Shown here piece by piece: positions 10,449 to 31,259 of a stretch of DNA of 64,000 bases. Each line of letters begins with the position of its first letter. Within the stretch, counting starts at the first letter, position 1. The position numbers and the translations under genes are program-made. The notes under the pieces are model-generated. The model did not search any database and was not told the DNA's origin. It saw only the letters and a list, made by a program, of their open reading frames with translations. The stretch comes from Oscillospiraceae bacterium (GTDB lineage: Bacteria > Bacillota > Clostridia > Oscillospirales > CAG-272), in contig SVTR01000008.1 in assembly GCA_015063685.1 (NCBI GenBank), positions 1,451 through 65,450 of the forward strand, written 5' to 3'.

Positions 10449-10465
10449 TGTTTATTGTATGGAAC

Positions 10466-12612: not shown

Positions 12613-12829
12613 ATTGTAGTTTATCGGTCGGTTCGTTCCCCGCTCCCCGACCTTCCCCTTTGGGGAAGGTGGCGCGCCCGTAGGGCGTGACGGATGAGGT
12701 GATAACGCTGGCACATCAAGATGTTTTGGCCCATACGTCTTACCTCATCCACCACCTTCGGTGGTCCCCCTTCCCCAAAGGGGAAGGTTCGGAAACGTTG
12801 GTTGCAACCCACCGATAAACCCAAATTTG
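12610..12829. repeat. Palindromic element, P family, bounded by junction-motif variants
   Basis: The ends are TAAATTGTAGTTTATCGGT and ACCGATAAACCCAAATTT. Inside are two CCTTCCCCTTTGGGGAAGG-type palindromes and a GGATGAGGT/ACCTCATCC pair. The first 3 nt are the upstream gene's stop codon. Confidence 0.85.
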
Positions 12830-16857: not shown

Positions 16858-17054
16858 ATGGTTGTTTAGCGTGGCGACCGCCGCATTTTTGACCTTCCCC
16901 TTTGGGGAAGGGGGACCATCCGAAGGATGGTGGATGAGGTAAAAAACTATGGCCGCAATATGTTTTCGGTTTTAGCCTCACCCACCGCAAGCGGTTCCCC
17001 CTCCCCAAAGGGGAGGGTATAGGGCGCGTGTCTCCTCCGCTAAATAACAATTTA
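16855..17054. repeat. Palindromic element, P family, bounded by junction-motif variants
   Basis: The ends are TAAATGGTTGTTTAGCG and CGCTAAATAACAATTTA. The interior is related to 12610-12829. It starts on the sigG TAA stop codon. Confidence 0.85.
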
Positions 17055-17099
17055 TACCCAAACATACAGAAAGGCTCGGCTTGTGCCGTGTACATATCC

Positions 17100-17945
17100 A
17101 TGAAAACGTATCATCTTACGAAAGAATTTATCACCGCCACCACGAACGCCATGCGTGAGGCTGGACGTATCATGCTCTCCGCCCATCGGGACGGTCAGGG
17201 TGGCGAGGTTACCTCTGACGAGATCAACGACAAGGACACCGCCCATGCCCAGGTCAACTTCGTTACGGTTTACGATAAAAAGGTTCAAGCCCTGCTGATC
17301 GAAAAATTACATATAGCCCTCCCAGAGGCCAAGTTTATGGCCGAGGAGGACGGTGCCGATCAGACCGACCCCACCGAAGGACTGTGTTTTGTCATCGACC
17401 CCATCGACGGTACCGCCAATTTTATTCGCGACTTGGCTTGCTCGGCCATATCTGTGGCGCTTTTGTCTGAGGGTATGCCCGTTTTCGGCGCGGTCTACCA
17501 GCCCTATGCCGACGAGTTGTTCCTGGCTGTCCGAGGGCAGGGAACGGTCTGCTACCGCCATGGTAATCCTCCCGAGAGGGTCACCGTCAGCACCCGCCCT
17601 TTGAAGGAGGCCATTGCCCTCCTCGGCACCTCCCCTTACTATAAAGACGAGTTGGGGGAAACTACCGTATCTCTCTTCAAAAATTGTCTCTACCATGCCG
17701 CCGACGTCCGCAGAAGCGGCTCTGCCGCCTATGATTTCTGCAATATTGCCATGGGGCGCACCGACCTTTTCTGCGAAGCCCGACTGTCCCCTTGGGACTA
17801 CGCCGCAGGCTGTCTGATTGTCACCGAGGCGGGTGGACAGGTCACTTGCCTTGATGGCACCCCTCTGCGCTTTGATCAGCCCTGCTCCGTCCTCGCGGCA
17901 GGATGCGGATGCTATGACGAGGCGGTGGAGATATTTCAACGGTAA
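17100..17945 (+). CDS. Inositol monophosphatase family protein
   Basis: Carries FMAEEDG, VIDPIDGTANF and WDYAAGCLIVTEAGG. The start is trimmed to the ATG at 17100. Confidence 0.85.
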   Translation: MKTYHLTKEFITATTNAMREAGRIMLSAHRDGQGGEVTSDEINDKDTAHAQVNFVTVYDKKVQALLIEKLHIALPEAKFMAEEDGADQTDPTEGLCFVIDPIDGTANFIRDLACSAISVALLSEGMPVFGAVYQPYADELFLAVRGQGTVCYRHGNPPERVTVSTRPLKEAIALLGTSPYYKDELGETTVSLFKNCLYHAADVRRSGSAAYDFCNIAMGRTDLFCEARLSPWDYAAGCLIVTEAGGQVTCLDGTPLRFDQPCSVLAAGCGCYDEAVEIFQR

Positions 17946-18234
17946 ATTGTTGTTTAGCGTTGTTGTGCCCCGCCTTGAAACAGTCATCCTGAGCGAGGGC
18001 GATGCCCGAGTCGAAGGATCCCACAGGAAGCAAAACCTTTTTATGACAATGGTTTTTTACAGGTATAAAGAGATCCTTCGGCGCGGCCAGCGGCCTTGTT
18101 CAGGATGACCGCGTTGGTCAGTAAACGCCCATAAACAACAATTTATCAGCCTAACCATCCATCGCGTGATGTATCTAGCACAGGATGCACTACCCCGAGC
18201 CAGAGCCCCACCGCAGGTGGTAAACAACAATTTA
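17943..18234. repeat. Composite element: junction motif - H cassette - junction motif - Xa arm - junction motif
   Basis: Exact TAAATTGTTGTTTA at 17943, and exact TAAACAACAATTTA at 18132 and 18221. Nearly identical to 29722-29999 except that the inner cassette is inverted. Confidence 0.9.
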
Positions 18235-18278
18235 TATGATTATCTCTGAACTATATCCTAAAACAAAGGAACGCACAT

Positions 18279-19010
18279 ATGAAAACCATTCTCCAATGGC
18301 TCCGCCGTGAGCGCGAGGATATGAAGCTCCTCCTCCGCTCCATCCCCGCTACCGTGGTGACCCTTTTCGTGGTCTCGGTCATCTGCATGAACCTGTTGGC
18401 CAATAAGACCCTCCTCCAACTGGATTGGATCGCCCTGGACGGCGGTATCCTCATCTCCTGGCTGTCCTTCATGTGCATGGACATCATCACTAAGCACTTT
18501 GGCCCGAGGGCATCCAACCGCATCTCCCTTTTGGCCTGCGGCATCAACCTGCTCACCTGCGCCATCTTTTTTGTCGCCGCCGCCATCCCCTCAAACGCGG
18601 AGGACTACACCGCCTTCAACGGCATCTTCGGCGGCACCTGGTTCATCCTTTTGGGCAGTACCGTGGCCTTCCTTGCCTCGGCCGTCATCAATAATACCCT
18701 CAACTGGATGATTGGCAAGGGCTTTAAAAAGAACCCTGACGGCAAGCTGGCCTACGCCATGCGAACATACGTCTCCACCTTCATCGGCCAGTTTTTGGAT
18801 AATTTCATTTTCTCTGTCATTGTCTTCGTCATCTTCGCCCCCATCTTCTGGAACGGCTTCTGCTGGACGGTGCTCCAATGCGCCATGTGCGCCCTGACGG
18901 GAGCCGCGGCCGAGCTTGTCATGGAAATCCTCTTTTCCCCCATCGGCTACCGTATGGTGCAAAAGTGGAAGCAGGAGCGGGTGGGACAGGCGTATTTGGA
19001 TAACAGATAA
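18279..19010 (+). CDS. Queuosine-precursor transporter family (YhhQ/DUF165, VUT family)
   Basis: A multi-pass membrane protein with the pattern NLLANKTLLQLDWIALDGGILISWLSFMCMDIITKHFG typical of YhhQ-like proteins. Confidence 0.7.
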   Translation: MKTILQWLRREREDMKLLLRSIPATVVTLFVVSVICMNLLANKTLLQLDWIALDGGILISWLSFMCMDIITKHFGPRASNRISLLACGINLLTCAIFFVAAAIPSNAEDYTAFNGIFGGTWFILLGSTVAFLASAVINNTLNWMIGKGFKKNPDGKLAYAMRTYVSTFIGQFLDNFIFSVIVFVIFAPIFWNGFCWTVLQCAMCALTGAAAELVMEILFSPIGYRMVQKWKQERVGQAYLDNR

Positions 19011-19160
19011 ATTTTTGTTTATCGAAGAGATACAAGATACGGCCGAGCAAGCTCGGCAGATACAAGATACAAGATAGGGAACTTTTGAAAAAATATGTCG
19101 CCGTATGGGTTTAGGAATATCTTGTATCTCGTATCTCGTATCTCGTATCTCCGTATCTCT
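19008..19160. repeat. K-family element: junction-motif variant, GATACAA heptamer runs, GCCGAGCAAGCTCGGC hairpin, inverted heptamer run
   Basis: TAAATTTTTGTTTATCG lies on the stop codon at 19008. The hairpin is at 19042-19057. The inverted run TATCTTGTATCTCGTATCTCGTATCTCGTATCTCCGTATCTC lies at 19117-19160. Confidence 0.8.
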
Positions 19161-19206
19161 CCGCAACGCCGCATTTTGCTCATATCATCTTGAAAGGAGA
19201 CTCCAT

Positions 19207-19860
19207 ATGAAGATCCTCATCACGGGCACCACCCAAGGCATCGGCCGCGCCATCGCCGTGAAATTTCTCAGCGAGGGACATACCGTTATCGGCATCGACC
19301 GCCAACCCTCCAGCATTGAACATACAAGCTATACCCACCATACCTGCGACATCCGCGACTATGACCGCCTCCCCGCCGTAGAAGGGGTGGAGATCCTTAT
19401 CAACAACGCGGGCACCCAAAACGAAAAGGATATTGATACCAACCTCAAAGCCCTCATCCATATGACCGAGACCTACGGCGTCACCCCCGCCATCAAGTCT
19501 GTCCTGCATATCGGCTCGGCCAGCGCACACACGGGCGCGGAATTTCCCGAATACTGCGCCTCCAAGGGCGGCGTTCTGGCCTATACCAAGAACGTGGCCA
19601 TGCGGGTGGCCAAATACGGCGCCACCTGCAACAGCCTGGACCCCGGCGGCGTGCTGACCCCCCTCAACGAGTGCGTCATGAACGATCCCGAGCTGTGGGC
19701 TGAGATCATGAACGAGACCCCCCTCCGCCGCTGGGCGACCCCCGAAGAGATCGCCGAGTGGGCGTATTTCCTCACCGTCGTGAATACCTTCTGCACGGGA
19801 CAGAGCATCCTCGTGGACGGCGGCGAGGCCATCAATTATCACTTTGTGTGGAAGGACTAA
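19207..19860 (+). CDS. SDR-family oxidoreductase
   Basis: Carries ILITGTTQGIGRAIA (TGxxxGxG), NNAG and the YCASK catalytic motif. The ATG at 19207 follows AAGGAG. Confidence 0.85.
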   Translation: MKILITGTTQGIGRAIAVKFLSEGHTVIGIDRQPSSIEHTSYTHHTCDIRDYDRLPAVEGVEILINNAGTQNEKDIDTNLKALIHMTETYGVTPAIKSVLHIGSASAHTGAEFPEYCASKGGVLAYTKNVAMRVAKYGATCNSLDPGGVLTPLNECVMNDPELWAEIMNETPLRRWATPEEIAEWAYFLTVVNTFCTGQSILVDGGEAINYHFVWKD

Positions 19861-19878
19861 AGAAAAGTTATAGGTAAT

Positions 19879-19995
19879 AGTGAAGAGTGAATAGGTGTGG
19901 ATGGAAACCTTCGGTTTCCCACATTCAAGTAAAAAATGGACAAATCCGAAGGATTTGCACCTCCACTTTTCACTCTTCACTCTTCACTCTTCACT
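19879..19995. repeat. S-family inverted doublet flanked by TTCACTC heptamer runs
   Basis: AGTGAAGAGTGAA on the left and (CTTCACT)x4 on the right enclose the hairpins GGAAACCttcGGTTTCC and CAAATCCgaaGGATTTG. Confidence 0.75.
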
Positions 19996-20020
19996 AAAAA
20001 ACGAAAGGCAGGTACATACC

Positions 20021-21658
20021 ATGAAAAGCCACTTCAAACTCCTCCTCCCCGACTCCGGCCGCGACATCTACATGCCCCGCAAGTCCCAGTCCTGGGGCTA
20101 CCGCTACGGCCCCACCATCATGGTGGAGAACGGGGTCTGCCACGCCTGGTTTGCCTCTCCCGGTGACTGCTACGAGGCAGACTGGTTCACCTACCGTAAG
20201 TCCACCGACGGCGGCAAGACCTGGACGGATGAAAAGGTGGTCATGTACCCCGTCCCCGATTCCATGGACTGGTTCTCGGTCTGTGATCCCGCCGTCATCA
20301 AGTACGGCGAGTACTACTACATCGGCTATACCTCCACCGTCTTCGCCAACGGCGGCGGTGTCTGCAACAACGGCTTCATCGGCCGCTCCAAGTCCCCCGA
20401 GGGCCCCTTTGAGCGGTGGTGCGGCGACGGCTGGGGCGAGACCCGCGAGACGGCCGACGGCACCCTGAGCTGGATGGGCAAGCCCGCCCCCGTCATCTAC
20501 TACGACGAGGACTGGCACAACTGGGGCGCGGGTGAATTCTCCTTTGTTATCAAGGATGAAACCATCTACATCTACTACACCTGGATGTCCAAGGACAGAG
20601 ACGGCAACCCCATCCATGAGACCCGCGTAGCCACCGCCGATATCACCGACGAGAACTGGCCGGGTAAGGTGATCCGGCAGGGCGTGGCGGTCAAGCGTCC
20701 CCGCGGCGGCAACGATTCCTACGACGTGGTCTACTGCGAGGATCTGCAAAAATTCATCGCCCTCTCCACCGACCACCGCTTCTCCGAGAACAGCGTGCTG
20801 GCGGTCTACGAGTCGGATGACGGTCTCCGCTATACCCGTGTCAATAACATCAAGGTCAATACCGGCTGGATGTGCCACAACTGCGGCATTTCCGGCGACG
20901 CACAGCACCACATCAAGTCGGGGGACACCCTGCTCCTGGCCTACGCCTACGGCAACAAGTGGGGCTGCTGGGGCACCCGCATCCACGATTACTCCTTCGA
21001 GGCCATGGAGGAGGACTTCTACGATGAGAGCGAGCTTCAGAACCTCCACCACGAGATCGAGAAGATCGACGATCCCACCGAGTTCAGCCCCTCCATGCTC
21101 TATTTGAGAAAGCCCCACTTCCGCCGCCTCGCCGTGGGGGAGACCCTGGAGATTCCCATGATGACGGGCAACGTCACCTATTCCATGCGCCCCGTGGAGG
21201 GAGAGGTCACCTTCTACGATTACGATCCCGCCATCCTCTCCATCGAGAACGGCAAGGCCACGGGTATCTCCGAGGGCTACACCTACGTCCGCGCCGCGTA
21301 CAACGGTCTGTTCTGCGAATTCCTCGCCTACGTGGACAATACCCGTCCCCACGTGGATCCCGACTGGAAGCCCCACCCCGAAAAGACCGTCACCTCCTTC
21401 ACCCCCCTCATCACCGAGTACGCCGCCTCCCTCGAAAAGCGGGAGATGAAGCAGCTCCGCGGTCTGGCGGTCTACGAAGACGGCACCTGGTTCGAGGTCT
21501 GCGGCGACGACGGCGTGACCTACGAGAACCACAGCCCCGAGCTGTTCCGCATGAGAGCGGACGGACATGTGGAGCCTACGGGCAAAACGGGGAAGGGAAC
21601 CGTCACCCTCATCTGTGGCGGGCATAGCTTTGACGTGACTGTTACCGTGGTGGATTGA
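20021..21658 (+). CDS. Cytoplasmic beta-propeller glycoside-hydrolase-like protein (GH43/BNR-like) with C-terminal Ig-like domains
   Basis: Carries an Asp-box STDGGKTW and a DPAVIKYGEYYYIGYT-type blade motif. The C-terminal ATGISEGYTYVRA / GKGTVTLICGGHSFDVTV resemble Big_2 domains. No signal peptide. The function is tentative. Confidence 0.6.
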   Translation: MKSHFKLLLPDSGRDIYMPRKSQSWGYRYGPTIMVENGVCHAWFASPGDCYEADWFTYRKSTDGGKTWTDEKVVMYPVPDSMDWFSVCDPAVIKYGEYYYIGYTSTVFANGGGVCNNGFIGRSKSPEGPFERWCGDGWGETRETADGTLSWMGKPAPVIYYDEDWHNWGAGEFSFVIKDETIYIYYTWMSKDRDGNPIHETRVATADITDENWPGKVIRQGVAVKRPRGGNDSYDVVYCEDLQKFIALSTDHRFSENSVLAVYESDDGLRYTRVNNIKVNTGWMCHNCGISGDAQHHIKSGDTLLLAYAYGNKWGCWGTRIHDYSFEAMEEDFYDESELQNLHHEIEKIDDPTEFSPSMLYLRKPHFRRLAVGETLEIPMMTGNVTYSMRPVEGEVTFYDYDPAILSIENGKATGISEGYTYVRAAYNGLFCEFLAYVDNTRPHVDPDWKPHPEKTVTSFTPLITEYAASLEKREMKQLRGLAVYEDGTWFEVCGDDGVTYENHSPELFRMRADGHVEPTGKTGKGTVTLICGGHSFDVTVTVVD

Positions 21659-21760
21659 TAAAAAATTTTTCTCCGTCGCATAATGTTTACAAAAAACCTC
21701 TTATATTGAAGCGAAGATTGTAGTAAAATAAAGAGAATAAATATCATGCGAGGTGGCAGT

Positions 21761-22483
21761 ATGAATCAACAACCCAGATATAAAAGGATCTTGCTGAAAT
21801 TGTCGGGCGAAGCCCTCTCTCCCAAGTGTCGTGAGGACGGCATTTTGGACTTCGCTTTCATGGATACCATTGCCGAGGTGCTGAAGAAGTGTCGTGATGC
21901 CGGCGTAGAGATCGGCGTTGTGGTAGGCGCAGGCAACATCTGGCGCGGCGTGACCGGTTCTGTTAAGATGGAACGGGCTCGGGCAGATCACATGGGTATG
22001 CTGGGCACCTGCATCAACGCCCTGGCGCTTCAGGATGTGTTCATCCGTCACGGTATGGACACCGTGGTTATGTCTGCGGTGGAGATGGACACCTTTGCTG
22101 ACCACTACAGCGCGAGAAACGCCAATCGCGTACTGGCGGCAGGAAAGATCGCCATTTTCTCCTGCGGTACGGGCGCGCCTTACTTCTCTACTGACACGGG
22201 CGCGGCTCTTCGCGCGGCAGAGATCCACGCCGATGCCATGCTCATGGCGAAAAATATTGATTTCGTCTATGATTCCGACCCTCGCAAAAATCCCGACGCC
22301 AAGCCCCTGTATGATCTTACCTATGCTGAGATCATTGAGAAAAACCTCAGAGCCTTTGATATGTCGGCGGTCATCTTCTGCCAGGACAACAACATCGAGG
22401 CCTACGGCTTCGGTCTGGCAGATCCCGAGAATATCTACCGTGTCGTCATGGGCGAGTCCGTAGGCACGCGGATGCATAATTGA
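21761..22483 (+). CDS. pyrH: UMP kinase
   Basis: Carries YKRILLKLSGEAL and GAGNIWRG. The ATG at 21761 follows GAGGTG. Confidence 0.93.
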   Translation: MNQQPRYKRILLKLSGEALSPKCREDGILDFAFMDTIAEVLKKCRDAGVEIGVVVGAGNIWRGVTGSVKMERARADHMGMLGTCINALALQDVFIRHGMDTVVMSAVEMDTFADHYSARNANRVLAAGKIAIFSCGTGAPYFSTDTGAALRAAEIHADAMLMAKNIDFVYDSDPRKNPDAKPLYDLTYAEIIEKNLRAFDMSAVIFCQDNNIEAYGFGLADPENIYRVVMGESVGTRMHN

Positions 22484-22593
22484 GCAGACGTTGTCTCTGC
22501 ATCCGGATTGCCGCGGATGCGCGATGATTTTGCTCCTTCCGTATCAAAACTCAAACAGAAAAACAATCCAAAACATAGAAAGGAAATACCACC

Positions 22594-23148
22594 ATGAAGT
22601 ACAATACCAAAGCACTTGAAGGCAGAATGGACAAGGCCATTGTCGCCTACGAAAACAACCTGGCCGATGTGCGCGCCAGTCAGGCAAACCCCGCCGTCCT
22701 CAACCGTGTGACCTTCGATTATTACGGTTCCGCTACCCCTATCAAGGATATGGCCGCTATCTCGGTTTCCGATGCTCGCACCCTGGTGATCCAGCCCTAT
22801 GACAAGTCCACCTTGAAGGCTATGGAAAAAGCCATTCAGATGTCCGACGTTGGCATCAATCCCCAGAATGACGGTACTGTTCTCCGCCTGCTGTTCCCTC
22901 AGCTGACCGAGGAGCGCCGTAAGGCTCTGGCAAAGCAGGTCAAGGGCATGGGCGAAGAGGCAAAAGTCGCCGTTCGTAACATCCGTCGCGATGCTATGGA
23001 CGAGACTAAAAAAGCCAAGAAGGATGGCACCATGACCGAAGATGAGGTTAAGGACGCAGAGAAGGCTATCCAGGATGTCACCGACAAGTATGTGAAAAAG
23101 GTAGATACACTTACCGCCGCCAAGGAAAAGGAACTGATGGCTATCTGA
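22594..23148 (+). CDS. frr: Ribosome recycling factor
   Basis: A 184-aa ORF carrying RASQANPAVLNRVTFDYYG, LVIQPYDKS, NPQNDGTVLRLLFPQLTEERR and VRNIRRDA. Confidence 0.95.
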   Translation: MKYNTKALEGRMDKAIVAYENNLADVRASQANPAVLNRVTFDYYGSATPIKDMAAISVSDARTLVIQPYDKSTLKAMEKAIQMSDVGINPQNDGTVLRLLFPQLTEERRKALAKQVKGMGEEAKVAVRNIRRDAMDETKKAKKDGTMTEDEVKDAEKAIQDVTDKYVKKVDTLTAAKEKELMAI

Positions 23149-23453
23149 GCCGCCCTTGCTGGTTCATAGATTTTGGGCTACCTCCCAAAGCTCTCTCGCC
23201 GATGGATCGGCGGCACTTTCTTCGGCATTTTTGCACAAAATTTCTTTGCGTAGCCCCACTAACGTCCACTACGCATGCGAATTTTTACATGAATTGCCAA
23301 ACAAATTGCTCGCCCCGCTTTCAGCGACAGAGTTTTAGAGATGCCCTTTGAATCCTCGCGGGTGGACAGAGATGTCCACCCGTTCATGTATCTAAATAAA
23401 AGGTACAAGATGAGTTTATCTTGTATCTTCCATTGTAGTGTAAGGAGAATCCT

Positions 23454-24200
23454 ATGGCCCTTTTTAAGAAAAGCACCCCTCAACCCGCCGAAGCTCCCGC
23501 AGCGGAGAAAAAGCTTCGTCCCGACGAAAACTTCAAGCACATTGCCTTTATCATGGACGGCAACGGCCGCTGGGCCAAAAAACGGGGTATGCCCCGTGAG
23601 TACGGCCACAAGGTTGGTGCCGCTACCTTCAAAAAGATTTGCATTTATTGCAGCGATATCGGCTTTCAGGCGGTGACGGTCTACGCCTTTTCCACCGAGA
23701 ACTGGAAGCGCCCCAAGCATGAGGTGGACGCCCTCATGATGATCCTTGATCAGTATCTTGATGAACTGAAAAGAGATCACGAGCAGTATAAGAGCCACTT
23801 CCGCTTCATTGGAGATCTGTCCTTTTTGACTCCCGAGCTGAAGGCCAAGATCGACGAGGTGGAAAAGTTGAATATGCACCATCCCCAGGTGCTGAACGTG
23901 GCCATCAATTACGGAGGAAGAGCCGAGCTGACCCATGCTGTCAATACCCTTATGGCTGAGGGCAAGACCTCGGTCACCGAGGAGGATATTTCCGGAGCGC
24001 TTTACACGGCCGAAGCGGGAGATCCCGATATGATCGTCCGAACCGGCGGCGATTTGCGCATTTCCAATTTCCTCTTGTGGCAGGCGGCCTATGCCGAGCT
24101 GTACTTTACCGATAAGCTCTGGCCTGACCTGAACAGTGACGATATCGACGAGATCGTCCGTGCCTTTTATTCCAGAAAACGCCGTTTCGGCGGACTTTGA
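23454..24200 (+). CDS. uppS: Isoprenyl transferase (undecaprenyl-diphosphate synthase)
   Basis: Carries HIAFIMDGNGRWAK, YAFSTENWKRP and RISNFLLWQAAYAELYF. Confidence 0.93.
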   Translation: MALFKKSTPQPAEAPAAEKKLRPDENFKHIAFIMDGNGRWAKKRGMPREYGHKVGAATFKKICIYCSDIGFQAVTVYAFSTENWKRPKHEVDALMMILDQYLDELKRDHEQYKSHFRFIGDLSFLTPELKAKIDEVEKLNMHHPQVLNVAINYGGRAELTHAVNTLMAEGKTSVTEEDISGALYTAEAGDPDMIVRTGGDLRISNFLLWQAAYAELYFTDKLWPDLNSDDIDEIVRAFYSRKRRFGGL

Positions 24201-24386
24201 TCGTATCAAAGAAGGTACTTAGCGTGAAGATTTAGAGGTGACCTTCAATGATCTCAAGCCCCAAGATACTGCTTCGCGCAGGATTCTCCCTAAAATGGGA
24301 CTTACCCCCTTATGTCGCTGACGAGCGACACGGTCGAATTTCAAGGTATATTTGTGCCGCCGCATAGCGGTGGAATGGAGATAATT

Positions 24387-25238
24387 ATGTTGAAACGTGT
24401 GATCACAGGCATCGTTGCCTTTTTGGTTTTTCTGCCTTTTATCATATTTTCAGATACGGTGGCGTTGCCCATCGGTCTTGGCTTGTGTGCCGCCATTGCC
24501 ATGTGGGAGGCCTTCCATTGTGTAGGACTTCACAAAAACCTTTGGCTGTCCCTGCCCTTGTACCCTATAGCCGCAGCCGCACCCATTTGTATGAGATGTC
24601 TGGGCATTGACACCACTCTGACCATGGCGGTTGTGGCAATCTTCGTGCTGATGCTGTATACATATGCGGTGTGCGTTTTCTCCAAGGGCAAGGTGGATAT
24701 TTCCGCGGCCTGCACCGCTTTGGTAACGTGTCTGTATACTATGGGTGGCTTCGCTGCCATCATTTACCTGCACGATTTCCATGCGGGCGGCAGATTCCTT
24801 TATCTGCTCACCTTCATCGGCGCGTGGATCACCGATATTTTTGCCTATTTTTCCGGTCGTCTCTTTGGAAAGCACAAGCTGATCCCTGAGATCAGCCCCA
24901 AGAAGACGGTGGAGGGTAGTATCGGCGGCATTTTGTTCTGCGTATTGGCCTTCTTGGGCTTCACTTATATCTACAATACCTGGCTGGTGGGCTTCTTGCC
25001 CGATGCGACACTCCCTGAGGTGACTGTCACTCTTCCCTATGTACTCATGGCGGTGGTGGGATTCGTGGTGTCCATTGTCTCCCAGATAGGTGATCTTTCC
25101 ATGTCGGCAATCAAGCGGCACTATGGCGTGAAAGACTTCGGCAAGCTTTTCCCCGGTCACGGCGGTGTTTTGGATCGCTTTGACTCTGTGCTGGCGGTGG
25201 CCATCATTCTGGCCTGTGCCTTGGGGATGCTACTGTAA
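24387..25238 (+). CDS. cdsA: Phosphatidate cytidylyltransferase
   Basis: A multi-TM protein with the C-terminal signature SQIGDLSMSAIKRHYGVKDFGKLFPGHGGVLDRFDS. Confidence 0.9.
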   Translation: MLKRVITGIVAFLVFLPFIIFSDTVALPIGLGLCAAIAMWEAFHCVGLHKNLWLSLPLYPIAAAAPICMRCLGIDTTLTMAVVAIFVLMLYTYAVCVFSKGKVDISAACTALVTCLYTMGGFAAIIYLHDFHAGGRFLYLLTFIGAWITDIFAYFSGRLFGKHKLIPEISPKKTVEGSIGGILFCVLAFLGFTYIYNTWLVGFLPDATLPEVTVTLPYVLMAVVGFVVSIVSQIGDLSMSAIKRHYGVKDFGKLFPGHGGVLDRFDSVLAVAIILACALGMLL

Positions 25239-25268
25239 AAGTTGCTTGCCGGAGGTTAACACAAACCT

Positions 25269-25361
25269 GTAGGGGTGACCCTGTGTGGTCGCCCGCACGG
25301 CAGGAATCTATATTCAATAAGAATTTATTGCCAACGGACGACCACATAGGGTCGCCCCTGT
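25269..25361. repeat. REPIN-like inverted doublet (G family)
   Basis: GTAGGGGTGACCctgtgtGGTCGCCC and GGACGACCacatagGGTCGCCCCTG are separated by an AT-rich ~40-nt spacer. Confidence 0.8.
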
Positions 25362-25419
25362 CCTAATTCAATTTTCCGCTAAACAAACTCTCCACACCAA
25401 AACGAAAGGAGCCTGCGTC

Positions 25420-26661
25420 ATGGCAAAATATCCCATTGGATTCTGGAATTACCCCTCTGTCACCACCACCCCCGTATCCGAGGTGGCCCGCTGGGACAAC
25501 TGCGGCATCACCTGCAACCAAACTCCCACATTCAGCTACGCCCACCATGATCCTGCCCTCATGACCGCTTTCCTCGATGAGATGCACAAGTACGACATGA
25601 AGGCTTTCGTTTACATCAACGATCTGAATTTCCATAACTTCAAGGAGGATCCCGAATCCTTCCGTGCCGTTTACGAGCGCGCCTATGCTGACTTTGGCCA
25701 TCATCCCGCCACCCTGGGCTTCTTCATCGGTGACGAGCCCTTGCAGCCCAAGGAGTTTGCCGCCTGCATCCGAGCCTATCAGATCATGCGTGAGGTGTCC
25801 CCCGAGCTGACGCCCCTCCTCAACTTCAACCCCTACTGGTTGGGCATCGAGACCGACTTCCTGGGCGGCCAAAGATTCGAGGACTGGCTGGACAACTTCA
25901 TCGACGCCTCGGGCTGTCCCCTCATCTGCTACGATTGCTACTGGCAGATGAACCCTGAGGAGGAGGGCACCAATTCCTACTTCCTTGACCTCAATAAGTA
26001 CACCGCCGCAGGCAAGCGCAAGGGGGTCAAGGTGTGGAATACCCTTCTGTCGGTGGGTCATTTCCGCTATCGTGTCCCCTCGGAGGACGATCTGCGCTGG
26101 CAGCTCTCCACCACTGTGGCCAGCGGCTGTGACGGTATTCTGTGGTTCTACTACTACGGAAACAATAATGGCAACAACTACCGCGGCGCCCCCATCGACG
26201 AGCTGGGAGAGGAGTCCGAAACCTATACCCGTATGCGCCGTGTGCAGAAGCTCTTCCACCGCCGCTACGGCGAAATGATCACCCGACTGAACCACGGCAA
26301 GACCTGGCACTTCCAGAAGGCTTACGGCGACTATCCCACGTATATGTGCTACGATATTCCTCGTCTGCGTAAGATGGAAAGCGCCCACGGCATCCCCGGC
26401 ATCGTCAGCACCTTCTACGACGAGAACGGAGAGCAGTACCTCTGCCTCTGTAACAACTCCCCCTTTGAGTCGGGGCTGTTCTCCTTCATCTTCGATCCCG
26501 GCGTCACTTCTTGTACCCGATATTGGGACAACGGCCGTGAAATCGACTTCAAAGCCTACCACCACGACGCCGTCTATCAGGAGCACTCCTCCTTCACCAA
26601 GATCGGCGTGTACCTGGCCCCCGGACAAATGGAAATCTTCAAGGTGGGCTATGACAAGTAA
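25420..26661 (+). CDS. Hypothetical cytoplasmic protein, possibly a TIM-barrel glycoside-hydrolase-like enzyme
   Basis: Clean 413-aa ORF with the codon style of its neighbours. FIGDEPLQP resembles a clan GH-A acid/base strand. No family recognised with confidence. Confidence 0.6.
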   Translation: MAKYPIGFWNYPSVTTTPVSEVARWDNCGITCNQTPTFSYAHHDPALMTAFLDEMHKYDMKAFVYINDLNFHNFKEDPESFRAVYERAYADFGHHPATLGFFIGDEPLQPKEFAACIRAYQIMREVSPELTPLLNFNPYWLGIETDFLGGQRFEDWLDNFIDASGCPLICYDCYWQMNPEEEGTNSYFLDLNKYTAAGKRKGVKVWNTLLSVGHFRYRVPSEDDLRWQLSTTVASGCDGILWFYYYGNNNGNNYRGAPIDELGEESETYTRMRRVQKLFHRRYGEMITRLNHGKTWHFQKAYGDYPTYMCYDIPRLRKMESAHGIPGIVSTFYDENGEQYLCLCNNSPFESGLFSFIFDPGVTSCTRYWDNGREIDFKAYHHDAVYQEHSSFTKIGVYLAPGQMEIFKVGYDK

Positions 26662-26713
26662 GCCTGATCCTTCACCGTCTTGTTTTCATTTTTTGCATTG
26701 AAAGGAGCGCACC

Positions 26714-27541
26714 ATGTACAATGGGCCTTATAAACTTGGCATCAACCTCATGGGAGGCTCGGGTCTCTCAGTAGACGAACACGTCGCTCTCCTCAAGCGC
26801 ATCGGTTGGGACGGCTTCTTCACAGGCTGGAACCGAGAGAAGCTGGATGAATTTCAAGCCGCCGCCGAGAAATACGGCATGATCTGGCAGTCCATCCACG
26901 CCCCCTTTACCCAAGTCCGCTATCTGTGGAACGAGGGTGAGCTGGGGGAACAGATTACAGACGAGCTCATCGAATGTGTCCGAGATTGCGCCGCGCACAA
27001 CGTCCCTGTCATGGTCATCCACCCCTTCATAGGCTTTGAGGATCACGATCCTACCGAGGTGGGACTTGAAAATTTTGGCAAGATCATCACCGCGGCGGAT
27101 GAGCTGGGGGTGCGGCTCGGCTTTGAGAACGTGGAGGGCGAGGAGTACCTGAAGGCTATCTTTGAGCGCTACGCCAATCACCCTTCCCTGGGCTTCTGCT
27201 TCGACACGGGCCATGAGCTGTGCTACAACCGCGGCAAGGATATGCTGGCCGAGTACGGTCACGCCCTCTGCCACACCCACTTCAACGACAATATCGGTGT
27301 AACGGGCAAGGACATTTTCTGGACAGACGATCTCCATCTGGTCATGGGTGACGGTATAGCCGACTGGACAAGCATCATGGCTCGCATTCGGAAAACGGGC
27401 TACAACGGGCCTCTCATGTGCGAGTTGTCCTTCTCCAACAAGCCCGGAAAAAATACCCACGACGCCTATGCCGCTATGGGACATGAAAGCTTCTACGAAT
27501 TTGCTCTCAAGCGAATGAGGGAAATGACAAAAAATAATTAA
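26714..27541 (+). CDS. Sugar-phosphate isomerase/epimerase (xylose-isomerase-like TIM barrel)
   Basis: Carries VMVIHP, GFENVEGEEYL, FCFDTGHE and HFNDN, the pattern of the AP_endonuc_2 family. Confidence 0.75.
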   Translation: MYNGPYKLGINLMGGSGLSVDEHVALLKRIGWDGFFTGWNREKLDEFQAAAEKYGMIWQSIHAPFTQVRYLWNEGELGEQITDELIECVRDCAAHNVPVMVIHPFIGFEDHDPTEVGLENFGKIITAADELGVRLGFENVEGEEYLKAIFERYANHPSLGFCFDTGHELCYNRGKDMLAEYGHALCHTHFNDNIGVTGKDIFWTDDLHLVMGDGIADWTSIMARIRKTGYNGPLMCELSFSNKPGKNTHDAYAAMGHESFYEFALKRMREMTKNN

Positions 27542-27558
27542 AGGGAGAGATCTTTCCG

Positions 27559-29619
27559 ATGAAAAAGACGATCGCATGTTTATTGGCCGTCACGCTATTC
27601 TCTCTTTCTTTGGCTGCGTGTGCACAGGATAGCGGCGGTTCGGCAAAGGAAACCGACCCTGCTTCCACCACCGAAGCAAAGACAGATACCGAAACAGATA
27701 TGGAAACCGAATCGGAGGCCGAAGCTACAACCGAGATCAATACCGAATATACTACCGACGCAGCAACCGAGGCGGAAAGCAAGACCGAAACGGAAGCCGA
27801 GACCACCGGAGAGACCCAAGCTGAACTCTCAATGGATACCGAAGCGGTCACCAAAATTGAGTCCGAAGCAGTCACCGAAATCGAGCCCGAAACCGAAGCC
27901 CGTACCGAGGTTGACACAGAGGCCGCACCGGAAGTCGAAACCGTTGACTATGATGCTTATCTCACCCTTGAGCCCGAAGCACCTGCTGAGGGAGAGGGCA
28001 TGACCATCAGCGGCGTGGACATTTCCGAATTTTCCATCGTGCGATCGGCAGATATGCCTGAGGGGCAGATCACCGCTTTGGAGATGTTTGCGGCGCAGGT
28101 CCAAAAGGTTACCGGCGCGGCCTTACCTATCATCACGGACGATCAAACCGCCGATCATGAAATCGTCATTGGCGACACCAACCGTCAGAATACCGCCGTG
28201 ACGGCGGCCGTTTCAGAGATCGACGATGACGGCTATGCCATCGTTGTGGACAGTGGGGATCTATATATTTCTGCCACCACAGGCCGCGGCGTTGTGTACG
28301 GCATGTGCGATTTCCTTGAAAATTATATGGGCGTGCGCTTGTACGCCATCGACTTTATCTATCACCGCAACGTGGGTGCCATCACGCTGAACGAAGGCAT
28401 GAAGGTTGTCTTCAGCCCTGAATTTCACGCCCGTAGAACTTGGATCGATAAGCTCGTAGCGGATCCGCTGGATAACGTTATTTTCCTCAAAAACAATTCC
28501 GACGGGCTGAAAAAAGCCAAGGTGGGAGACCCTGTCGTTGTCCGCGCCAATTCTAATCACACCATTGATAAATTGGCCGACATGAAGGGCGCGAACCCCT
28601 GTCCCTCTGATGAGGCGGTTTATCAGACCGTGCTGGCCAACGTGATGGAAAAGCTGGAGGAGAACCTGCTTCAAAACACCATCCAGGTGGGACAGGTAGA
28701 CGGTAGTGAACCCTGCCGTTGCGCTAACTGCAAGGCGGTGAATGAGCCCTACGGCACCGAAAACGCCGCCTGGTTCCTCTTCATCAACCGCCTGGCCGAC
28801 GAGGCCAACGCAAAGTTCCCTGAGCGTGACGTGAAGATCATTACGTATTCCTATCAGTTTACCCATGGCGTCCCCGGCAACGGCTTCACCGTGTCTGATA
28901 ACGTCATTATCAACTTCTGCTTTGACGATGCTTGCTACAACCATGCCTTTGACGATCCCGGATGCGCCAAGAACGTGCCTGTGGTAGCCGAATTGAGAGA
29001 GTGGGCAAAGCTGTGCAAGGCGGATAATCTGTACGTTTACGAATACGCCTACAACTGCGGAGACGCAACCTTGCCCGACCCCAACATCCTCGTTATGTGG
29101 GATAATTTCCGGCTCTATCTGGAATGTGGGGTCAACGGTATACTGTCCGAGGGCATTCAAAGCAAGGGTGGCGACTTTGACTATCTGCGTGCCTATCTCA
29201 GAGCCAAGCTGGTCTGGAATCCTCATATGACCAGAGACGAGTATTTTACCCTGCTGAAACAGTTCATGGTGGATTACTACGGCGACGCGGCCCCCCTTAT
29301 GATCGAGTATCTGAAGATTCTCGGTGACGGTAAGCGCAACTATTGTACGGATATGTATACACCTATGTACACCTTCTACTGCGTTGAGGGCGGAACCGAG
29401 GAAAAAGATATTTCCCAAGATATTCTGCTTCAATGCCAAGCCCTCTTTGATGAGGCGTTGGCACTGGAAACGCTCACCGAAGAACAAAAAAATCACGTAG
29501 AGTATACCGCTATCCACCTGTTCCTCGTCCGTTGGAAGTACTTCCCCAAGGATGATCCCGATGGTAAGACGGCCTGCTACAAGACCATCTATCAGTTCCG
29601 TAATAAATACGGGGTTTGA
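27559..29619 (+). CDS. Lipoprotein with an acidic T/E-rich linker and a DUF4838-like (GH20/GH67-N-like) domain
   Basis: Lipobox MKKTIACLLAVTLFSLSLAAC, then a ~110-aa TE-rich linker. EIVIGDTNR...DDGYAIVVDSGDLYISATTGRGVVYGMCDFLENYMGVR is typical of DUF4838 proteins. Confidence 0.75.
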   Translation: MKKTIACLLAVTLFSLSLAACAQDSGGSAKETDPASTTEAKTDTETDMETESEAEATTEINTEYTTDAATEAESKTETEAETTGETQAELSMDTEAVTKIESEAVTEIEPETEARTEVDTEAAPEVETVDYDAYLTLEPEAPAEGEGMTISGVDISEFSIVRSADMPEGQITALEMFAAQVQKVTGAALPIITDDQTADHEIVIGDTNRQNTAVTAAVSEIDDDGYAIVVDSGDLYISATTGRGVVYGMCDFLENYMGVRLYAIDFIYHRNVGAITLNEGMKVVFSPEFHARRTWIDKLVADPLDNVIFLKNNSDGLKKAKVGDPVVVRANSNHTIDKLADMKGANPCPSDEAVYQTVLANVMEKLEENLLQNTIQVGQVDGSEPCRCANCKAVNEPYGTENAAWFLFINRLADEANAKFPERDVKIITYSYQFTHGVPGNGFTVSDNVIINFCFDDACYNHAFDDPGCAKNVPVVAELREWAKLCKADNLYVYEYAYNCGDATLPDPNILVMWDNFRLYLECGVNGILSEGIQSKGGDFDYLRAYLRAKLVWNPHMTRDEYFTLLKQFMVDYYGDAAPLMIEYLKILGDGKRNYCTDMYTPMYTFYCVEGGTEEKDISQDILLQCQALFDEALALETLTEEQKNHVEYTAIHLFLVRWKYFPKDDPDGKTACYKTIYQFRNKYGV

Positions 29620-29630
29620 GCTTACACCGA

Positions 29631-30016
29631 TAAATTGTTGTTTAGCGGGCAGTGCCCGCAGCCAACGCTCGGGAATGTTCAACCCATGTGAACTGCATCC
29701 CGCGATGGGCAGTTAGGCAGGTAAATTGTTGTTTATGGGCGTTTACTGACCAACGCGGTCATCCTGAGCAAGGCCGCTGGCCGCGCCGAAGGATCTCTTT
29801 ATACCTGTAAAAAACCATTGTCATAAAAAGGTTTTGCTTTCTGTGGGATCCTTCGACTCGGGCATCGCCCTCGCTCAGGATGACTGTTTCAAGGCGGGGC
29901 ACAACAACGCTAAACAACAATTTATCAGCCTAACCATCCATCGCGTGATGTATCTAGCATAGGATGCACTACCCCGAGCCAGAGCCCCACCGCAGGTGGC
30001 CGGCAAACACAATTTG
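29631..30016. repeat. Complete composite element: motif - Xb arm - motif - H cassette - motif - Xa arm - degenerate motif
   Basis: Exact motifs at 29631 and 29722 (forward) and 29911 (reverse), with degenerate CAAACACAATTTG at 30004. It fills the spacer between the lipoprotein gene and dxr. Confidence 0.9.
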
Positions 30017-30044: not shown

Positions 30045-31259
30045 ATGTATCACACCAATTCCTACCCCGACCTGATCATTTTGGGTTCCACCGGTTCTGT
30101 GGGCACCCAGGCGGCGGATGTGGCACGGTGCCAGACGGCACAAGGCCGCAAAATTGCCGTCCGAGGGGTCACCGCCCACCGTGACGTGGCCACCATTGAG
30201 GCGCAGGTCAGAGAATTTCATCCCGATTTTGCGGTCATGACCGATGAGACCGCCGCCGATGATCTGAAAATCAGACTGGCGGACACCGATACCACGGTGC
30301 TTGGAGGCTTCGAGGGCATCCGTGAAATGCTGGGGACTGTCAAAACCGAAAATCCCATGGGTATCACCGTGGAAAACTCCATTTTGGGAGAGGCAGGGCT
30401 GGCGCCCACCCTCTACACCCTGGAGGCCGGCCACCGTCTTGCCCTTGCCAATAAAGAATCTCTGGTGGTGGGCGGCGAGCTGGTCATGGCTCTTTGCCGC
30501 GCTACCGGACAGGAAATTTTGCCTGTGGACAGCGAGCATTGCGCCATTTTCCAATGCATGCGGGCAGGACGCCCCGAGGAGGTCAGAAAAATCTGGCTCA
30601 CCGCGTCGGGGGGACCCTTCTTTGGCTACACCAGGGAGCAGCTCGCCACGGTTACCAAGGCACAAACCCTGGCCCATCCCACCTGGAAGATGGGTGCCAA
30701 GATCACCGTAGATTCAGCGACCCTGATGAACAAGGGCTTCGAGGTCATCGAGGCGGTGCATCTTTTCGGCGTCAAGCCCAAAGACGTGCAGGTAGTGGTG
30801 CATCGTGAGAGCATGATTCACTCCATGGTGGAATATACTGACTATAGCATCATCGCTCAGATGTCGGTGCCTGATATGCGGCATTGCGTCCAGTACGCCC
30901 TGACCCATCCCTGCCGCAGCTCCGCCGAGGGGATCATGAAGCCCCTGGATCTCTTTGAGGTGGGCAAGCTGACCTTCGCCCGCCCCGACACCGAGACCTT
31001 CCCCCTTTTGAAGCTGGCCATGGATGCCATCGCTTTGGGCGGTGCGGTGCCTGCCGTGCTGAATGCCGCCAACGAGGTGGTGGTAGCCGCCTTCCTCCAC
31101 GAGAAGATCAAATTCTGCGAGATCTCGGAGTACGTCACCCGCGTGGTGGAGGACATGAAGGGTGTCTCGGCATGGCACAGCTACGACAGCATCATGGAAG
31201 CTGACAGCCTGGCAAGACAAAGCGCTCGGGCGCTTCTCAACCATCATACGGAGGATTGA
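30045..31259 (+). CDS. dxr: 1-deoxy-D-xylulose-5-phosphate reductoisomerase
   Basis: Carries ILGSTGSVGTQAADV, LANKESLV, VDSEHCAIFQC and HPTWKMGAKITVDSATLMNKG. The start is trimmed to the ATG at 30045. Confidence 0.93.
   Translation: MYHTNSYPDLIILGSTGSVGTQAADVARCQTAQGRKIAVRGVTAHRDVATIEAQVREFHPDFAVMTDETAADDLKIRLADTDTTVLGGFEGIREMLGTVKTENPMGITVENSILGEAGLAPTLYTLEAGHRLALANKESLVVGGELVMALCRATGQEILPVDSEHCAIFQCMRAGRPEEVRKIWLTASGGPFFGYTREQLATVTKAQTLAHPTWKMGAKITVDSATLMNKGFEVIEAVHLFGVKPKDVQVVVHRESMIHSMVEYTDYSIIAQMSVPDMRHCVQYALTHPCRSSAEGIMKPLDLFEVGKLTFARPDTETFPLLKLAMDAIALGGAVPAVLNAANEVVVAAFLHEKIKFCEISEYVTRVVEDMKGVSAWHSYDSIMEADSLARQSARALLNHHTED

Follow-up and report, generated by a model that had tools for sequence, protein, structure and literature searches.

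A cassette in opposite orientations at two loci belongs to a mosaic palindromic repeat family of uncultured ruminant-gut Clostridia

Two loci carry one cassette in opposite orientations

The 64-kb window (the whole stretch of DNA analysed) contains two intergenic regions in which structured modules are joined by a short motif, M. The first lies between an inositol-monophosphatase gene and the Vut_1 transporter gene (locus 1) and the second between a DUF4838 gene and dxr (locus 2); plus and minus give the orientation of M, and a prime on M marks copies with 1 mismatch.

17943–17956, plus strand: junction motif M+ (TAAATTGTTGTTTA), its TAA being the stop of the inositol-monophosphatase gene (17028–17945)
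17957–18131, plus strand: cassette A copy 1, orientation Q'->P, inverse of copy 2
18132–18145, minus strand: junction motif M-, common to cassette A and the Xa arm
18146–18220, minus strand: Xa arm, a structured 75-nt module with hairpin 1 CCACC-TGCG-GGTGG
18221–18234, minus strand: outer junction motif M-, preceding the Vut_1 transporter gene (18279–19010) by 44 nt
29631–29644, plus strand: outer junction motif M+, 12 nt past the stop of the DUF4838 gene (29619)
29645–29721, plus strand: Xb arm, 77 nt, with hairpin 1 GCGGGC-AGT-GCCCGC
29722–29735, plus strand: inner junction motif M+
29736–29910, minus strand: cassette A copy 2, inverted with respect to copy 1 (173/175 identity after reverse complementation)
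29911–29924, minus strand: inner junction motif M-
29925–29999, minus strand: Xa arm copy 2, on the same strand as 18146–18220
30000–30016, minus strand: degenerate outer M- (CCGGCAAACACAATTTG), 28 nt ahead of dxr (30045–31259)

When reverse-complemented, 29736–29910 equals 17957–18131 with 2 mismatches in 175 nt (18027 G/A and 18099 T/C, copy 1 versus reverse-complemented copy 2; BLAST E-value 2e-105), the same two differences quoted in an earlier, sequence-only reading of this DNA. Same-strand identity between the copies is only 31%, which excludes a palindrome effect and establishes a true flip. By contrast with the cassette, Xa is direct at both loci with 1 mismatch (18181 C/T; 74/75 identical), again as that reading had it, so that Xa adjoins the P end of cassette A at locus 1 and the Q' end at locus 2. 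The claim that 14-bp inverted repeats bound the cassette also stood: M is exact at 17943(+)/18132(-) and 29722(+)/29911(-), as well as at 18221(-) and 29631(+).

Copy 1 has an A/T-rich centre between two inverted 38-nt hairpin arms (17983–18020 and 18072–18109), and the hairpin arms of copy 2 lie at 29758–29795 and 29847–29884. The Xb arm at locus 2 is ~75% complementary to the Xa arm across the cassette, and the whole locus-2 element has a predicted fold of -97.5 kcal/mol (z = -9.6). In RGIG8736, an intact M occupies the place orthologous to the degenerate outer M- of this locus.

The flip-defining junctions recur in other assemblies

A short-read assembler could in principle have misplaced or misoriented the repeated 203-bp M-A-M unit, in which case the flip would not be in the genome. 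The unit exceeds assembler k-mers, and the genome of the window organism holds at least three cassette A copies, with M-A-M flanked by different arms (no arm/Xa; Xb/Xa; ?/X3). In four other assemblies, from other samples, the left side of locus 2 continues into an X3 arm and an ABC-transporter gene to the right of the cassette, diverging exactly after 29924, and one contig ends at 29924. This makes it uncertain which left side belongs to which right side of the cassette, although the pairing in the window matches the conserved gene order of relatives. What defines the flip itself is a pair of junctions in which only the 14 bp of M separate cassette-specific sequence from Xa and unique gene sequence. 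Seven other contigs repeat the Xa-M-(P end) junction that precedes the Vut_1 gene, and 6 repeat the Xa-M-(other end) junction in front of dxr; they come from many independent JGI and ENA assemblies whose samples are possibly related cultures. The far-side cassette junctions likewise recur in other assemblies. Because both Xa-M-cassette junctions recur, the flip is not an assembly artefact, and we regard misassembly as extremely improbable.

All 13 other contigs that reach the cassettes agree on one orientation per locus, these being consensus assemblies that are blind to minority orientations. One of the 7 locus-1 contigs carries another base at SNP 18099, which shows that not every strain is the same.

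Cassette A is part of a mosaic repeat family

Cassette A is one module of a clade-restricted mosaic palindromic repeat family of uncultured ruminant-gut Clostridia/Oscillospiraceae. With up to 2 mismatches allowed, the window has 17 occurrences of M where 0.13 would be expected, clustered in intergenic spots that include further family members (no strand assigned).

12610–12829: M+' (1 mismatch), CCCCTTTGGGGAAGG-hairpin-type cassette, degenerate M-; the TAA of M terminates the upstream GDSL-lipase gene
16855–17054: armless member with M+' (1 mismatch), 172-nt cassette and M-' (1 mismatch); the TAA of M terminates a sigma-factor gene
19008–19160: M+' (1 mismatch), then a different hairpin module (GATACAAGATAC type); the TAA of M terminates the Vut_1 gene
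25236–25393: decayed member after cdsA, with degenerate M+, GTAGGGG-type hairpin pair and degenerate M-
33515–34321: full member, M+ Xa-like M+, 600-nt long-palindrome cassette, M-, Xb-like arm, degenerate M-; the TAA of M terminates ispG
60086–60421: full canonical member, M+ Xa M+, 132-nt GTAGGGG-type cassette, M-', Xb, M-'; both M-' carry 1 mismatch

Two kinds of module make up the family, namely ~75-nt X arms with two hairpins and cassettes with two inverted hairpins around an A/T-rich centre. The canonical form, M+ X M+ cassette M- X M-, has 0–3 X arms per side and can fold as a single long hairpin. Exactly one M sits at each module junction, head-to-head M-M joints are absent, and all 81 X arms align in a single polarity relative to M, which is invariant across the family while the modules diverge. 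Hairpin 1 of the X arms has compensatory pairs (CG:34/GC:28 and GC:56/CG:13/AU:9) and a covariation score of 0.283, versus 0.115 in shuffles and at most 0.13 with the pairing slid. Many family cassettes begin with CGTAGGGG plus a palindrome, which constitutes a GTAG tag.

The pattern M-N65-90-M was found only in 5–6 related ruminant-gut Clostridia/Oscillospiraceae MAGs, one of which has more than 45 copies. Among relatives of the window organism, the M-bearing MAGs are the closest (69–75% CdsA identity), and M is missing from more distant ones. Several species retain elements at orthologous positions between genes of the pyrH-frr-uppS-cdsA-dxr-rseP-ispG-polC cluster. Between cdsA and dxr, what the M copies enclose is different in each of 6 relatives, and in one relative the element is reduced to a footprint (TAAATTGTT followed by TTCCA). 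Element sites are ancient and their content turns over fast.

Such persistence would also suit modules that serve the host. Transcribed within operons, the hairpins and A/U-rich M might act in mRNA processing, stabilisation or termination, or in DNA binding, along the lines proposed for REP/BIME elements, and, the cassette being almost a palindrome, its orientation would make no functional difference. The invariance of M and the strong folding potential would agree with a host function, as would the fact that at 19 of 125 boundaries the upstream gene ends on the TAA of M. However, content at a given site is completely different between species, the elements match no Rfam family, and GCA_054271655, a close relative, has lost or degraded elements at the same sites without replacement. 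We consider a host-serving role improbable, although it is not exclusive of the explanation that we favour below.

Cassettes are uncoupled from their arms

Across the family, cassette orientation is uncoupled from the arms. In RGIG8736, loci L018 and L024 share the same arm pair (153/154) with flipped cassettes and different flanks, and their cassettes are less alike (~93% identical) than their arms (99%), which points to replacement and not to a simple flip. Both arm classes occur at either cassette end, with 8 T1 and 3 T2 arms beside the Q end and 5 of each class beside the P end. Two species-level MAGs carry copies of cassette A', a homologue of cassette A, that match at 174/174 positions, whereas the adjacent arms are 56% identical.

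We propose that the two loci carry copies of a non-coding, non-autonomous repeat from this clade-specific mosaic family, in which an M-bounded cassette may be copied or recombined independently of its arms and land in either orientation, the X arms holding a fixed polarity to their M's while varying from 0 to 3 per side. Since the cassette appears to move independently of the arms and in either orientation, the flip is probably the fixed outcome of past reshuffling of modules at M, involving at least three recent cassette copies in this genome, and not a switch operating at either locus.

A possible but rather unlikely alternative is inversion in place, whereby M-A-M-Xa was copied once and the cassette then inverted by a crossover between inverted M's, a rare event that is now fixed. 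The agent might be a site-specific recombinase whose gene lies elsewhere; alternatively, replication could have switched templates at the A/T-rich M, which lies between hairpins that stall the fork. Parsimony favours this course, since Xa and cassette A are both ~99% identical between the loci and one copy event plus one inversion would suffice. Colinearity breaks exactly at M, the M pairs are perfect 14-bp inverted repeats, the element as a whole forms one long palindrome that readily takes up secondary structure, and L018 and L024 keep intact, identical arms around a flipped centre. Yet the cassettes of that pair have diverged more than the arms, the same cassette also lies beside unrelated arms, and the alternative orientation is absent from every assembly reaching the loci. 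At 14 bp, M is shorter than RecA recombination usually requires, and no recombinase was found in the window.

For reassortment, we infer that M is the site at which a transposase, nuclease or recombinase would act, as a terminal inverted repeat or a crossover site. Neither the window nor ~0.5 Mb of related loci, the latter screened with an IS200 TnpA query, yielded a transposase, RAYT or recombinase; no target-site duplication was seen beyond a possible TA inside M, and no empty/filled site pair of recent age was found. Nested insertion of a terminal-inverted-repeat element would create head-to-head M-M joints; their absence, with one M per junction, counts against that simple route.

An active switch at the two loci is not supported

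The flip had been read as the possible trace of an invertible-segment-like switch. As an active phase-variable inverton, an invertase would flip a promoter- or signal-bearing cassette between M repeats and thereby switch the Vut_1 transporter or dxr. The perfect inverted repeats lie upstream of genes, both orientations are present in one genome, and a weak ATGACA-15 nt-TATAAA (~18044–18069) points toward Vut_1 in copy 1, while in copy 2 it faces away from dxr. However, the scan passed no sigma-70-like promoter or terminator in cassette A, and this sole promoter-like stretch, whose spacer is 15 nt, is not kept in related genomes, the candidate -10 being lost in the homologous cassette A' although the hairpin arms are conserved and the loop is not. 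No recombinase or transposase domain was present in any window gene examined, leaving the 64 kb without an invertase. The neighbouring genes (inositol monophosphatase, the Vut_1 transporter and dxr) are housekeeping genes, and dozens of element copies per genome lie between such genes in conserved operons. Together with the one orientation per locus in the 13 contigs, these observations leave an active switch at the two loci unsupported, and we judge an inverton very improbable. Of the two options in the sequence-only reading, the switch is thus not supported; the better fit is orientation-free placement of a motif-bounded cassette, which suits a family where either orientation occurs beside the same arms and identical cassettes beside unrelated ones. 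That reading had missed that the cassette is a module of a large mosaic family, with at least three copies in this genome.

Relation to known systems

Invertons, invertible promoters and shufflons resemble the present loci in having a short segment between inverted repeats in two orientations, and invertons typically control surface or stress genes (PMC11602134, PMC11892184). Here, in contrast, the two orientations sit at different loci, with no promoter, nearby invertase or mixed population at consensus level.

REP/BIME/REPIN elements of Proteobacteria are mobilised by RAYT (TnpA-REP) Y1 transposases (PMC3116915, PMC3333891, PMC2817692, PMC3733652), and some REP dimers lie within longer 'frame' palindromes (PMC3733652). 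They share with the present family high-copy intergenic palindromes, mosaic and clustered at conserved intergenic sites with content that varies between relatives; the cassettes, two inverted hairpins with a 40–60-nt spacer, recall REPINs or head-to-head REP dimers, and many are GTAG-tagged. Unlike REPs, cassette A itself begins GTCATCCTGAGCG... and has no GTAG tag, the 75-nt structured X arms in direct M-X-M repeats are additional, and the invariant 14-bp A/T-rich M at every junction has no BIME counterpart. The host, moreover, is a Clostridia lineage in whose loci RAYT was not found, as described above.

Neisseria intergenic mosaic elements (NIMEs), in which RS blocks lie between 20-bp dRS3 inverted repeats (PMC1797815, PMC3898611), are the nearest analogue for having a single short motif wherever modules meet. 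Both are intergenic mosaics and rearrangement hot spots, in which variable 50–150-bp blocks meet at one short conserved repeat that occurs in either orientation. The two are unrelated in sequence and taxon, dRS3 forms a small palindrome by itself but M does not, and the regular palindromic layout M+ X M+ C M- X M- is found only in the present family. Repeats of the dRS3 type have reportedly been the subject of a study on the ssDNA nuclease Ssn.

MITEs with IR/DR-type ends carry multiple transposase-binding repeats per end, Correia elements of Neisseria being a bacterial MITE example (PMC3184786). The present elements are likewise small (200–800 bp), non-coding and bounded by inverted M copies; each ~100-bp end has two direct M copies (outer and inner), sub-forms use inner-inner or outer-inner pairs, and insertion at gene ends supplies a stop codon. 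They differ in that no autonomous partner or clear target-site duplication was seen, the arms form tandem arrays of up to 3, and the centre is exchangeable and orientation-free.

The family is previously undescribed and consists of "junk-like", hairpin-forming repeats between the housekeeping genes of an uncultured gut bacterium. These elements would appear to be selfish or REP-like rather than regulatory.

A cassette flipped between two loci

The sequence-only reading held that one cassette is flipped between two loci of the window, and direct comparison bears this out. Cassette A, a 175-nt module at 17957-18131 (locus 1), differs from the reverse complement of 29736-29910 (locus 2) by 2 mismatches in 175 nt (18027 and 18099); compared on the same strand, the copies share only 31% identity. 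The adjoining Xa, one of the ~75-nt structured modules that we call X arms, was said to keep its orientation, and 18146-18220 indeed matches 29925-29999 directly, with 1 mismatch (18181). The bounding repeats are likewise as claimed: exact inverted pairs of the 14-bp junction motif TAAATTGTTGTTTA (M, with M+ and M- for its two strand orientations) stand at 17943/18132 and 29722/29911. With ≤2 mismatches allowed, the window contains 17 copies of M where chance predicts 0.13.

Layout of the M-bounded elements in the window
Locus 1, between the IMPase and Vut_1 genes: M+, cassette A, M-, Xa, M-
Locus 2, between the DUF4838 gene and dxr: M+, Xb, M+, flipped cassette A, M-, Xa, degenerate M-
Other elements with like grammar: at 12610, 16855, 19008, 25236 (decayed), 33515 and 60086

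At locus 1, the inositol-monophosphatase gene takes its stop codon from the TAA of the first M, and the last M ends 44 nt ahead of the Vut_1 transporter gene. Cassette A itself is built of 38-nt arms (17983-18020 and 18072-18109) that are 84% complementary and flank a 51-nt A/T-rich centre. Its unlike ends are named P and Q'; Xa adjoins P at locus 1 and Q' at locus 2. Folded as a single strand, each element forms one long hairpin (locus 2, -97.5 kcal/mol, z = -9.6; locus 1, z = -7.4). Further cassette types occur among the other window elements, among them one with a GTAGGGG palindrome, one of the CCCCTTTGGGGAAGG type and a long palindrome of 600 nt.

Each locus shows one orientation at consensus level

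Contigs of other samples that encode identical flanking proteins were looked up, all of them consensus assemblies; the window itself is JGI contig Ga0318466_10009448, and the counts cover other contigs. At locus 1, all 7 contigs that reach cassette A from the Vut_1 side show the window orientation (0-2 mismatches), and at locus 2 all 6 that run from dxr into the cassette match the window exactly. The junctions on the far side, IMPase/M+/Q' and DUF4838/Xb/M+/P, were likewise recovered in other contigs. The mixed orientations for which the sequence-only reading had proposed a check did not appear in these independent assemblies, which give one orientation per locus at consensus level (7 + 6 contigs). 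As far as consensus assemblies show, each locus is fixed in orientation.

One other sample (locus L067) carries C at 18099, in locus-1 orientation, so the strains sampled are not all identical. Copy 2 and the homologues in other species have C as well; T at this position is therefore either a recent strain-specific change or a sign that copies exchange sequence.

A scan of both cassette copies returned no sigma-70-like promoter and no intrinsic terminator. The sole promoter-like stretch of cassette A has a 15-nt spacer and is not kept in A', the homologue in related genomes, where the hairpin arms are conserved and the loop is not. No recombinase or transposase domain was found in any window gene examined, nor any site-specific invertase among the window genes. 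The surroundings are a conserved housekeeping cluster (sigma factor-IMPase-...-pyrH-frr-uppS-cdsA-dxr-rseP-ispG-polC-...-ruvAB). An active inverton, for which the flanking inverted repeats speak and the single orientation at each locus and the lack of an internal promoter or polar signal do not, is thus highly improbable, and the claim that cassette A is a genetic switch is not supported.

A third cassette copy and assembly ambiguity

Four contigs of other samples match the window without a difference from DUF4838 via Xb, M+, cassette A and M-, and diverge exactly after 29924; beyond it, in place of Xa-dxr, come X3 (a different arm), a further M- and a gene for an ABC transporter in convergent orientation. 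One further contig terminates exactly at 29924 (loci concerned: L249, L251, L253, L256 and L254). This alternative continuation implies that M-A-M, a unit of 203 bp, is present three or more times in this genome, and short reads cannot resolve the pairing of left and right sides across it. The divergence at 29924/29925 is more likely an arbitrary path choice by the assembler at the third cassette copy; it could also be a real structural polymorphism or rearrangement at M. The flip is unaffected by this ambiguity because the junctions that define it span only M, and we regard an assembly artefact as scarcely credible.

A mosaic repeat family in related ruminant-gut Clostridia

Searching one genome per species for the exact pattern M-N65-90-M returned 60 loci in only five or six MAGs, all from ruminant-gut Clostridia/Oscillospiraceae, with a single MAG, RGIG8736, supplying more than 45 of the 60. 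The majority of these loci lie ~125 nt from a contig end, which indicates that the repeats break assemblies. By CdsA, the element-bearing MAGs are the closest relatives of the window organism (69-75% identity); M was absent in relatives with CdsA identity of ≤58%.

The canonical element reads M+ X(75) M+ cassette(143) M- X(77) M-; the number of arms in tandem ranges from 0 to 3 on each side. Arm polarity relative to both M's is one and the same in 81 of 81 distinct aligned arms. Many compensatory changes support hairpin 1 of the arm and some support hairpin 2 (for example, UA:52 versus GC:19), giving a covariation score of 0.283 compared with 0.115 when shuffled and ≤0.13 for slid pairings. 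RNAalifold on the 81 arms yielded hairpin 1 only; hairpin 2 was set by hand and is partly supported.

No Rfam family reached gathering score in the whole window, and at E≤1 the region 17700-18400 gave two chance low scores, to a plant miRNA-precursor model (cassette hairpin) and an archaeal snoRNA model. A tRNA/tmRNA scan returned nothing, and a literature search for the motif strings found no relevant paper. Cassette A is part of a so far undescribed variant of mosaic palindromic repeats.

Comparison with known systems

Cassette A resembles REP/REPIN sequences in its inverted hairpin arms and 51-nt spacer, and the 143-nt cassettes are laid out alike. The GTAG head of REPs (CGTAGGGG plus palindrome) is present in many cassettes of the family, such as those at 60209 and 25269 and the 143-nt cassettes of RGIG8736, but absent from cassette A, whose arms start GTCATCCTGAGCG. 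Earlier work describes REP dimers set within longer palindromes (PMC3733652). As in MITEs, M+ ... M- bound every element, the elements span 200 to ~800 bp and they have no coding capacity. They differ from NIMEs in that the junction motif here is TAAATTGTTGTTTA and the host belongs to the Clostridia, whereas NIMEs carry dRS3, a ATTCCCNNNNNNNNGGGAAT-type repeat, in Neisseria. The likeness to NIMEs lies in the mode of organisation only, one motif per junction in a mosaic, as with dRS3 (PMC1797815). The doubled M of each element end recalls transposon ends of the IR/DR type. Membership in the REP/REPIN, NIME or IR/DR-type families is not established, because the GTAG tag is missing from cassette A, the searches found no RAYT, and motif and host differ.

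Other candidates were set aside. Shufflons are invertible segments within a coding gene whose C-termini are exchanged by an Rci-type recombinase; the elements here are intergenic and non-coding, and no recombinase was found. Integron attC sites were rejected because X lies between direct rather than inverted M's. Resemblances to Xer/dif, Chi, DNA-uptake sequences, IHF sites and the hammerhead ribozyme were considered and dropped.

Cassettes and arms assort independently while sites persist

A metagenome scan with Dxr for close strains reached 74% identity at best and gained no orthologous loci, which were obtained instead by homologous-protein search and look-up of the encoding contigs. In every element-bearing relative the cdsA/dxr spacer holds an M-bounded element, with different content in each.

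Content of the cdsA/dxr spacer in relatives
RGIG8736: M X M C141 M
SIG684: M C153 M
RGIG3848: X M 7-bp M
One 90% Dxr relative: two tandem arms
A second 90% Dxr relative: another cassette type
GCA_054271655: footprint TAAATTGTT/TTCCA only

In three species, cdsA takes its stop codon from the TAA of M. Together with the differing content, this indicates that the sites are old and their content turns over quickly. Within the window, the TAA of the outer M is the stop of the upstream gene at five sites (12610, 16855, 17943, 19008 and 33515), and overall it supplies a stop codon at 19 of 125 element boundaries.

In an 86% Dxr relative (GCA_054271655.1, JAZLYG010000036.1; L241, 9959-13660), the orthologous sites hold decayed remnants only: TAAATTGTT/TTCCA after cdsA, an arm-arm fusion between rseP and ispG, and a degenerate M pair after ispG. 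The repeat family appears extinct in this lineage, which makes it useful for tracing the responsible enzyme by gene-content comparison.

Two RGIG8736 loci, L018 and L024, share an arm pair (153/154), with opposite cassettes and unlike flanks. Each of the two cassette ends is found beside each of the two arm classes, and copies of whole elements exist too (L021 and L049). Two species-level MAGs, RGIG8736 (L017:2249-2422) and JAZSFA01 (L325:3280-3453), carry A' copies that are identical over 174 of 174 nt amid arms of 56% identity and unrelated flanks, which suggests either that the cassette has spread horizontally or that it is very strongly constrained. Taken together, the flips, the mixed pairings and the shared A' make the flip in the window one case of a general independent assortment, in which cassettes of either orientation combine with arms and M stands at each joint. 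Of the interpretation offered by the sequence-only reading, orientation-free placement accords with this family-wide assortment; the switch is not supported, with one orientation per locus at consensus level and no promoters. The main rival holds that [M A M Xa] was copied once and then underwent rare in-place inversion across the inverted M's. It is favoured by the near-identity of both Xa and cassette A between the loci, and we judge it possible, if unlikely.

A block at 25236-29644 (a 413-aa unknown protein, an AP_endonuc_2/xylose-isomerase-like protein and DUF4838) separates cdsA from dxr in the window; in all relatives these two genes are direct neighbours. The decayed element at 25236-25393 borders the block on one side and locus 2 on the other, suggesting that the three genes were inserted into or between repeat elements.

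Possible mode of spread

We think it probable that the elements are non-autonomous, REPIN/MITE-like selfish repeats whose M-bounded cassette is copied in either orientation via a putative M-recognising enzyme. Such an enzyme would recognise M; the unit of copying would be the M-bounded cassette, landing in either orientation; and the arms would be polar M-X units, gained or lost as direct M's slip against each other. That the elements serve the host, in mRNA processing or DNA binding, would be compatible with this explanation and is very unlikely.

No autonomous element with like ends emerged, as no M+...M- interval exceeded 660 nt in ~340 loci, weak evidence given that MAG contigs break at repeats. 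Viral contigs gave no match to the exact M-N65-90-M pattern, and plasmids and phages gave no blastn match to the locus-2 element. No Y1 HUH/RAYT-type domain was found in the window genes examined. A tblastn search of ~0.52 Mb of element-bearing loci with IS200 TnpA found no match, a weak result given its low sensitivity for RAYTs and the incomplete genomes. The flanks of 34 complete elements carry no direct repeat that would mark a target-site duplication; they show a symmetric GG/M ... M/CC preference, and a TA duplication could be hidden within the first and last two bases of M. No recent empty site was found. Junctions carry exactly one M each, and head-to-head M-M joints do not occur. That no transposase, target-site duplication or recent empty site was found, and that M-M joints do not occur, counts against all transposition models.

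On a bolder reading, M would be where crossovers are made by a recombination system so far unrecognised and still at work, which would insert, exchange and invert structured non-coding cassettes genome-wide and would exchange them between species too. Its traces of ongoing recombination would be the alternative junction exactly after M at 29924/29925 (four assemblies), the cassette that two species with unrelated arms share at 174/174 identity, and the flips between identical arm pairs; the same traces can be read as old events plus assembly ambiguity. We consider this reading, by analogy a "shufflon/integron for intergenic hairpin modules", quite unlikely.

Other repeats and genes

The hairpin arm of cassette A, GTCATCCTGAGCGAGGGCGAAnGCCCGAGTCGAAGGAYC (17983-18020, also 10338-10450; loci L258-L336), is not clade-specific. 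An exact 20-mer of it matched at least 106 loci, those listed including Acidobacteriota (Terriglobales), Omnitrophota, Gemmatimonadota, Fibrobacterales, Armatimonadota and Verrucomicrobiota, and frequently formed inverted pairs separated by 150-180 nt. A few Streptomyces and Pseudomonas matches were rejected as coding coincidences. No Rfam family and no paper was found to carry the arm string, and Rfam on four loci of other phyla gave chance low scores only, mostly to miRNA-precursor models.

A further dispersed hairpin module (GATACAAGATAC...GCCGAGCAAGCTCGGC...) lies at 19027-19079, 38912-38964 and 43564-43615, one copy directly after an M. After polC, 38830-38907 is a run of short GATACAA/AGATACA-like tandem repeats. 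The long open frame at 26-3739 contains ~198-bp tandem repeats (621-1744, units 87-90% identical) and, solely towards the C-terminus, a ribosomal L15 domain; the probable readings are a repeat protein and a spurious frame that continues into rplO. Two adjacent minus-strand genes (49971-52787 and 52994-55789; ~930 aa each) have no Pfam match and are paralogous (71% over 1.7 kb). A third gene (959 aa) adjoins the pair, and the group adjoins an ECF sigma factor gene.

Significance

The elements break short-read assemblies and can produce chimeric joins across housekeeping operons, and they would be false positives for inverton predictors that use inverted repeats alone. If the description holds, an uncultured clade of gut Clostridia harbours a mosaic repeat family that is high in copy number and so far undescribed; the density in the window, about one M in every 4 kb, would extrapolate to hundreds per genome. 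The family grammar is unusually regular, with an invariant 14-bp motif at each junction, polar arms and orientation-free centres, which makes it a tractable case for how REP/REPIN/NIME-like mosaics assemble and homogenise, and it may lead to a new enzyme acting on M. Its value lies in this grammar and in the question of what acts on M, rather than in a regulatory switch.
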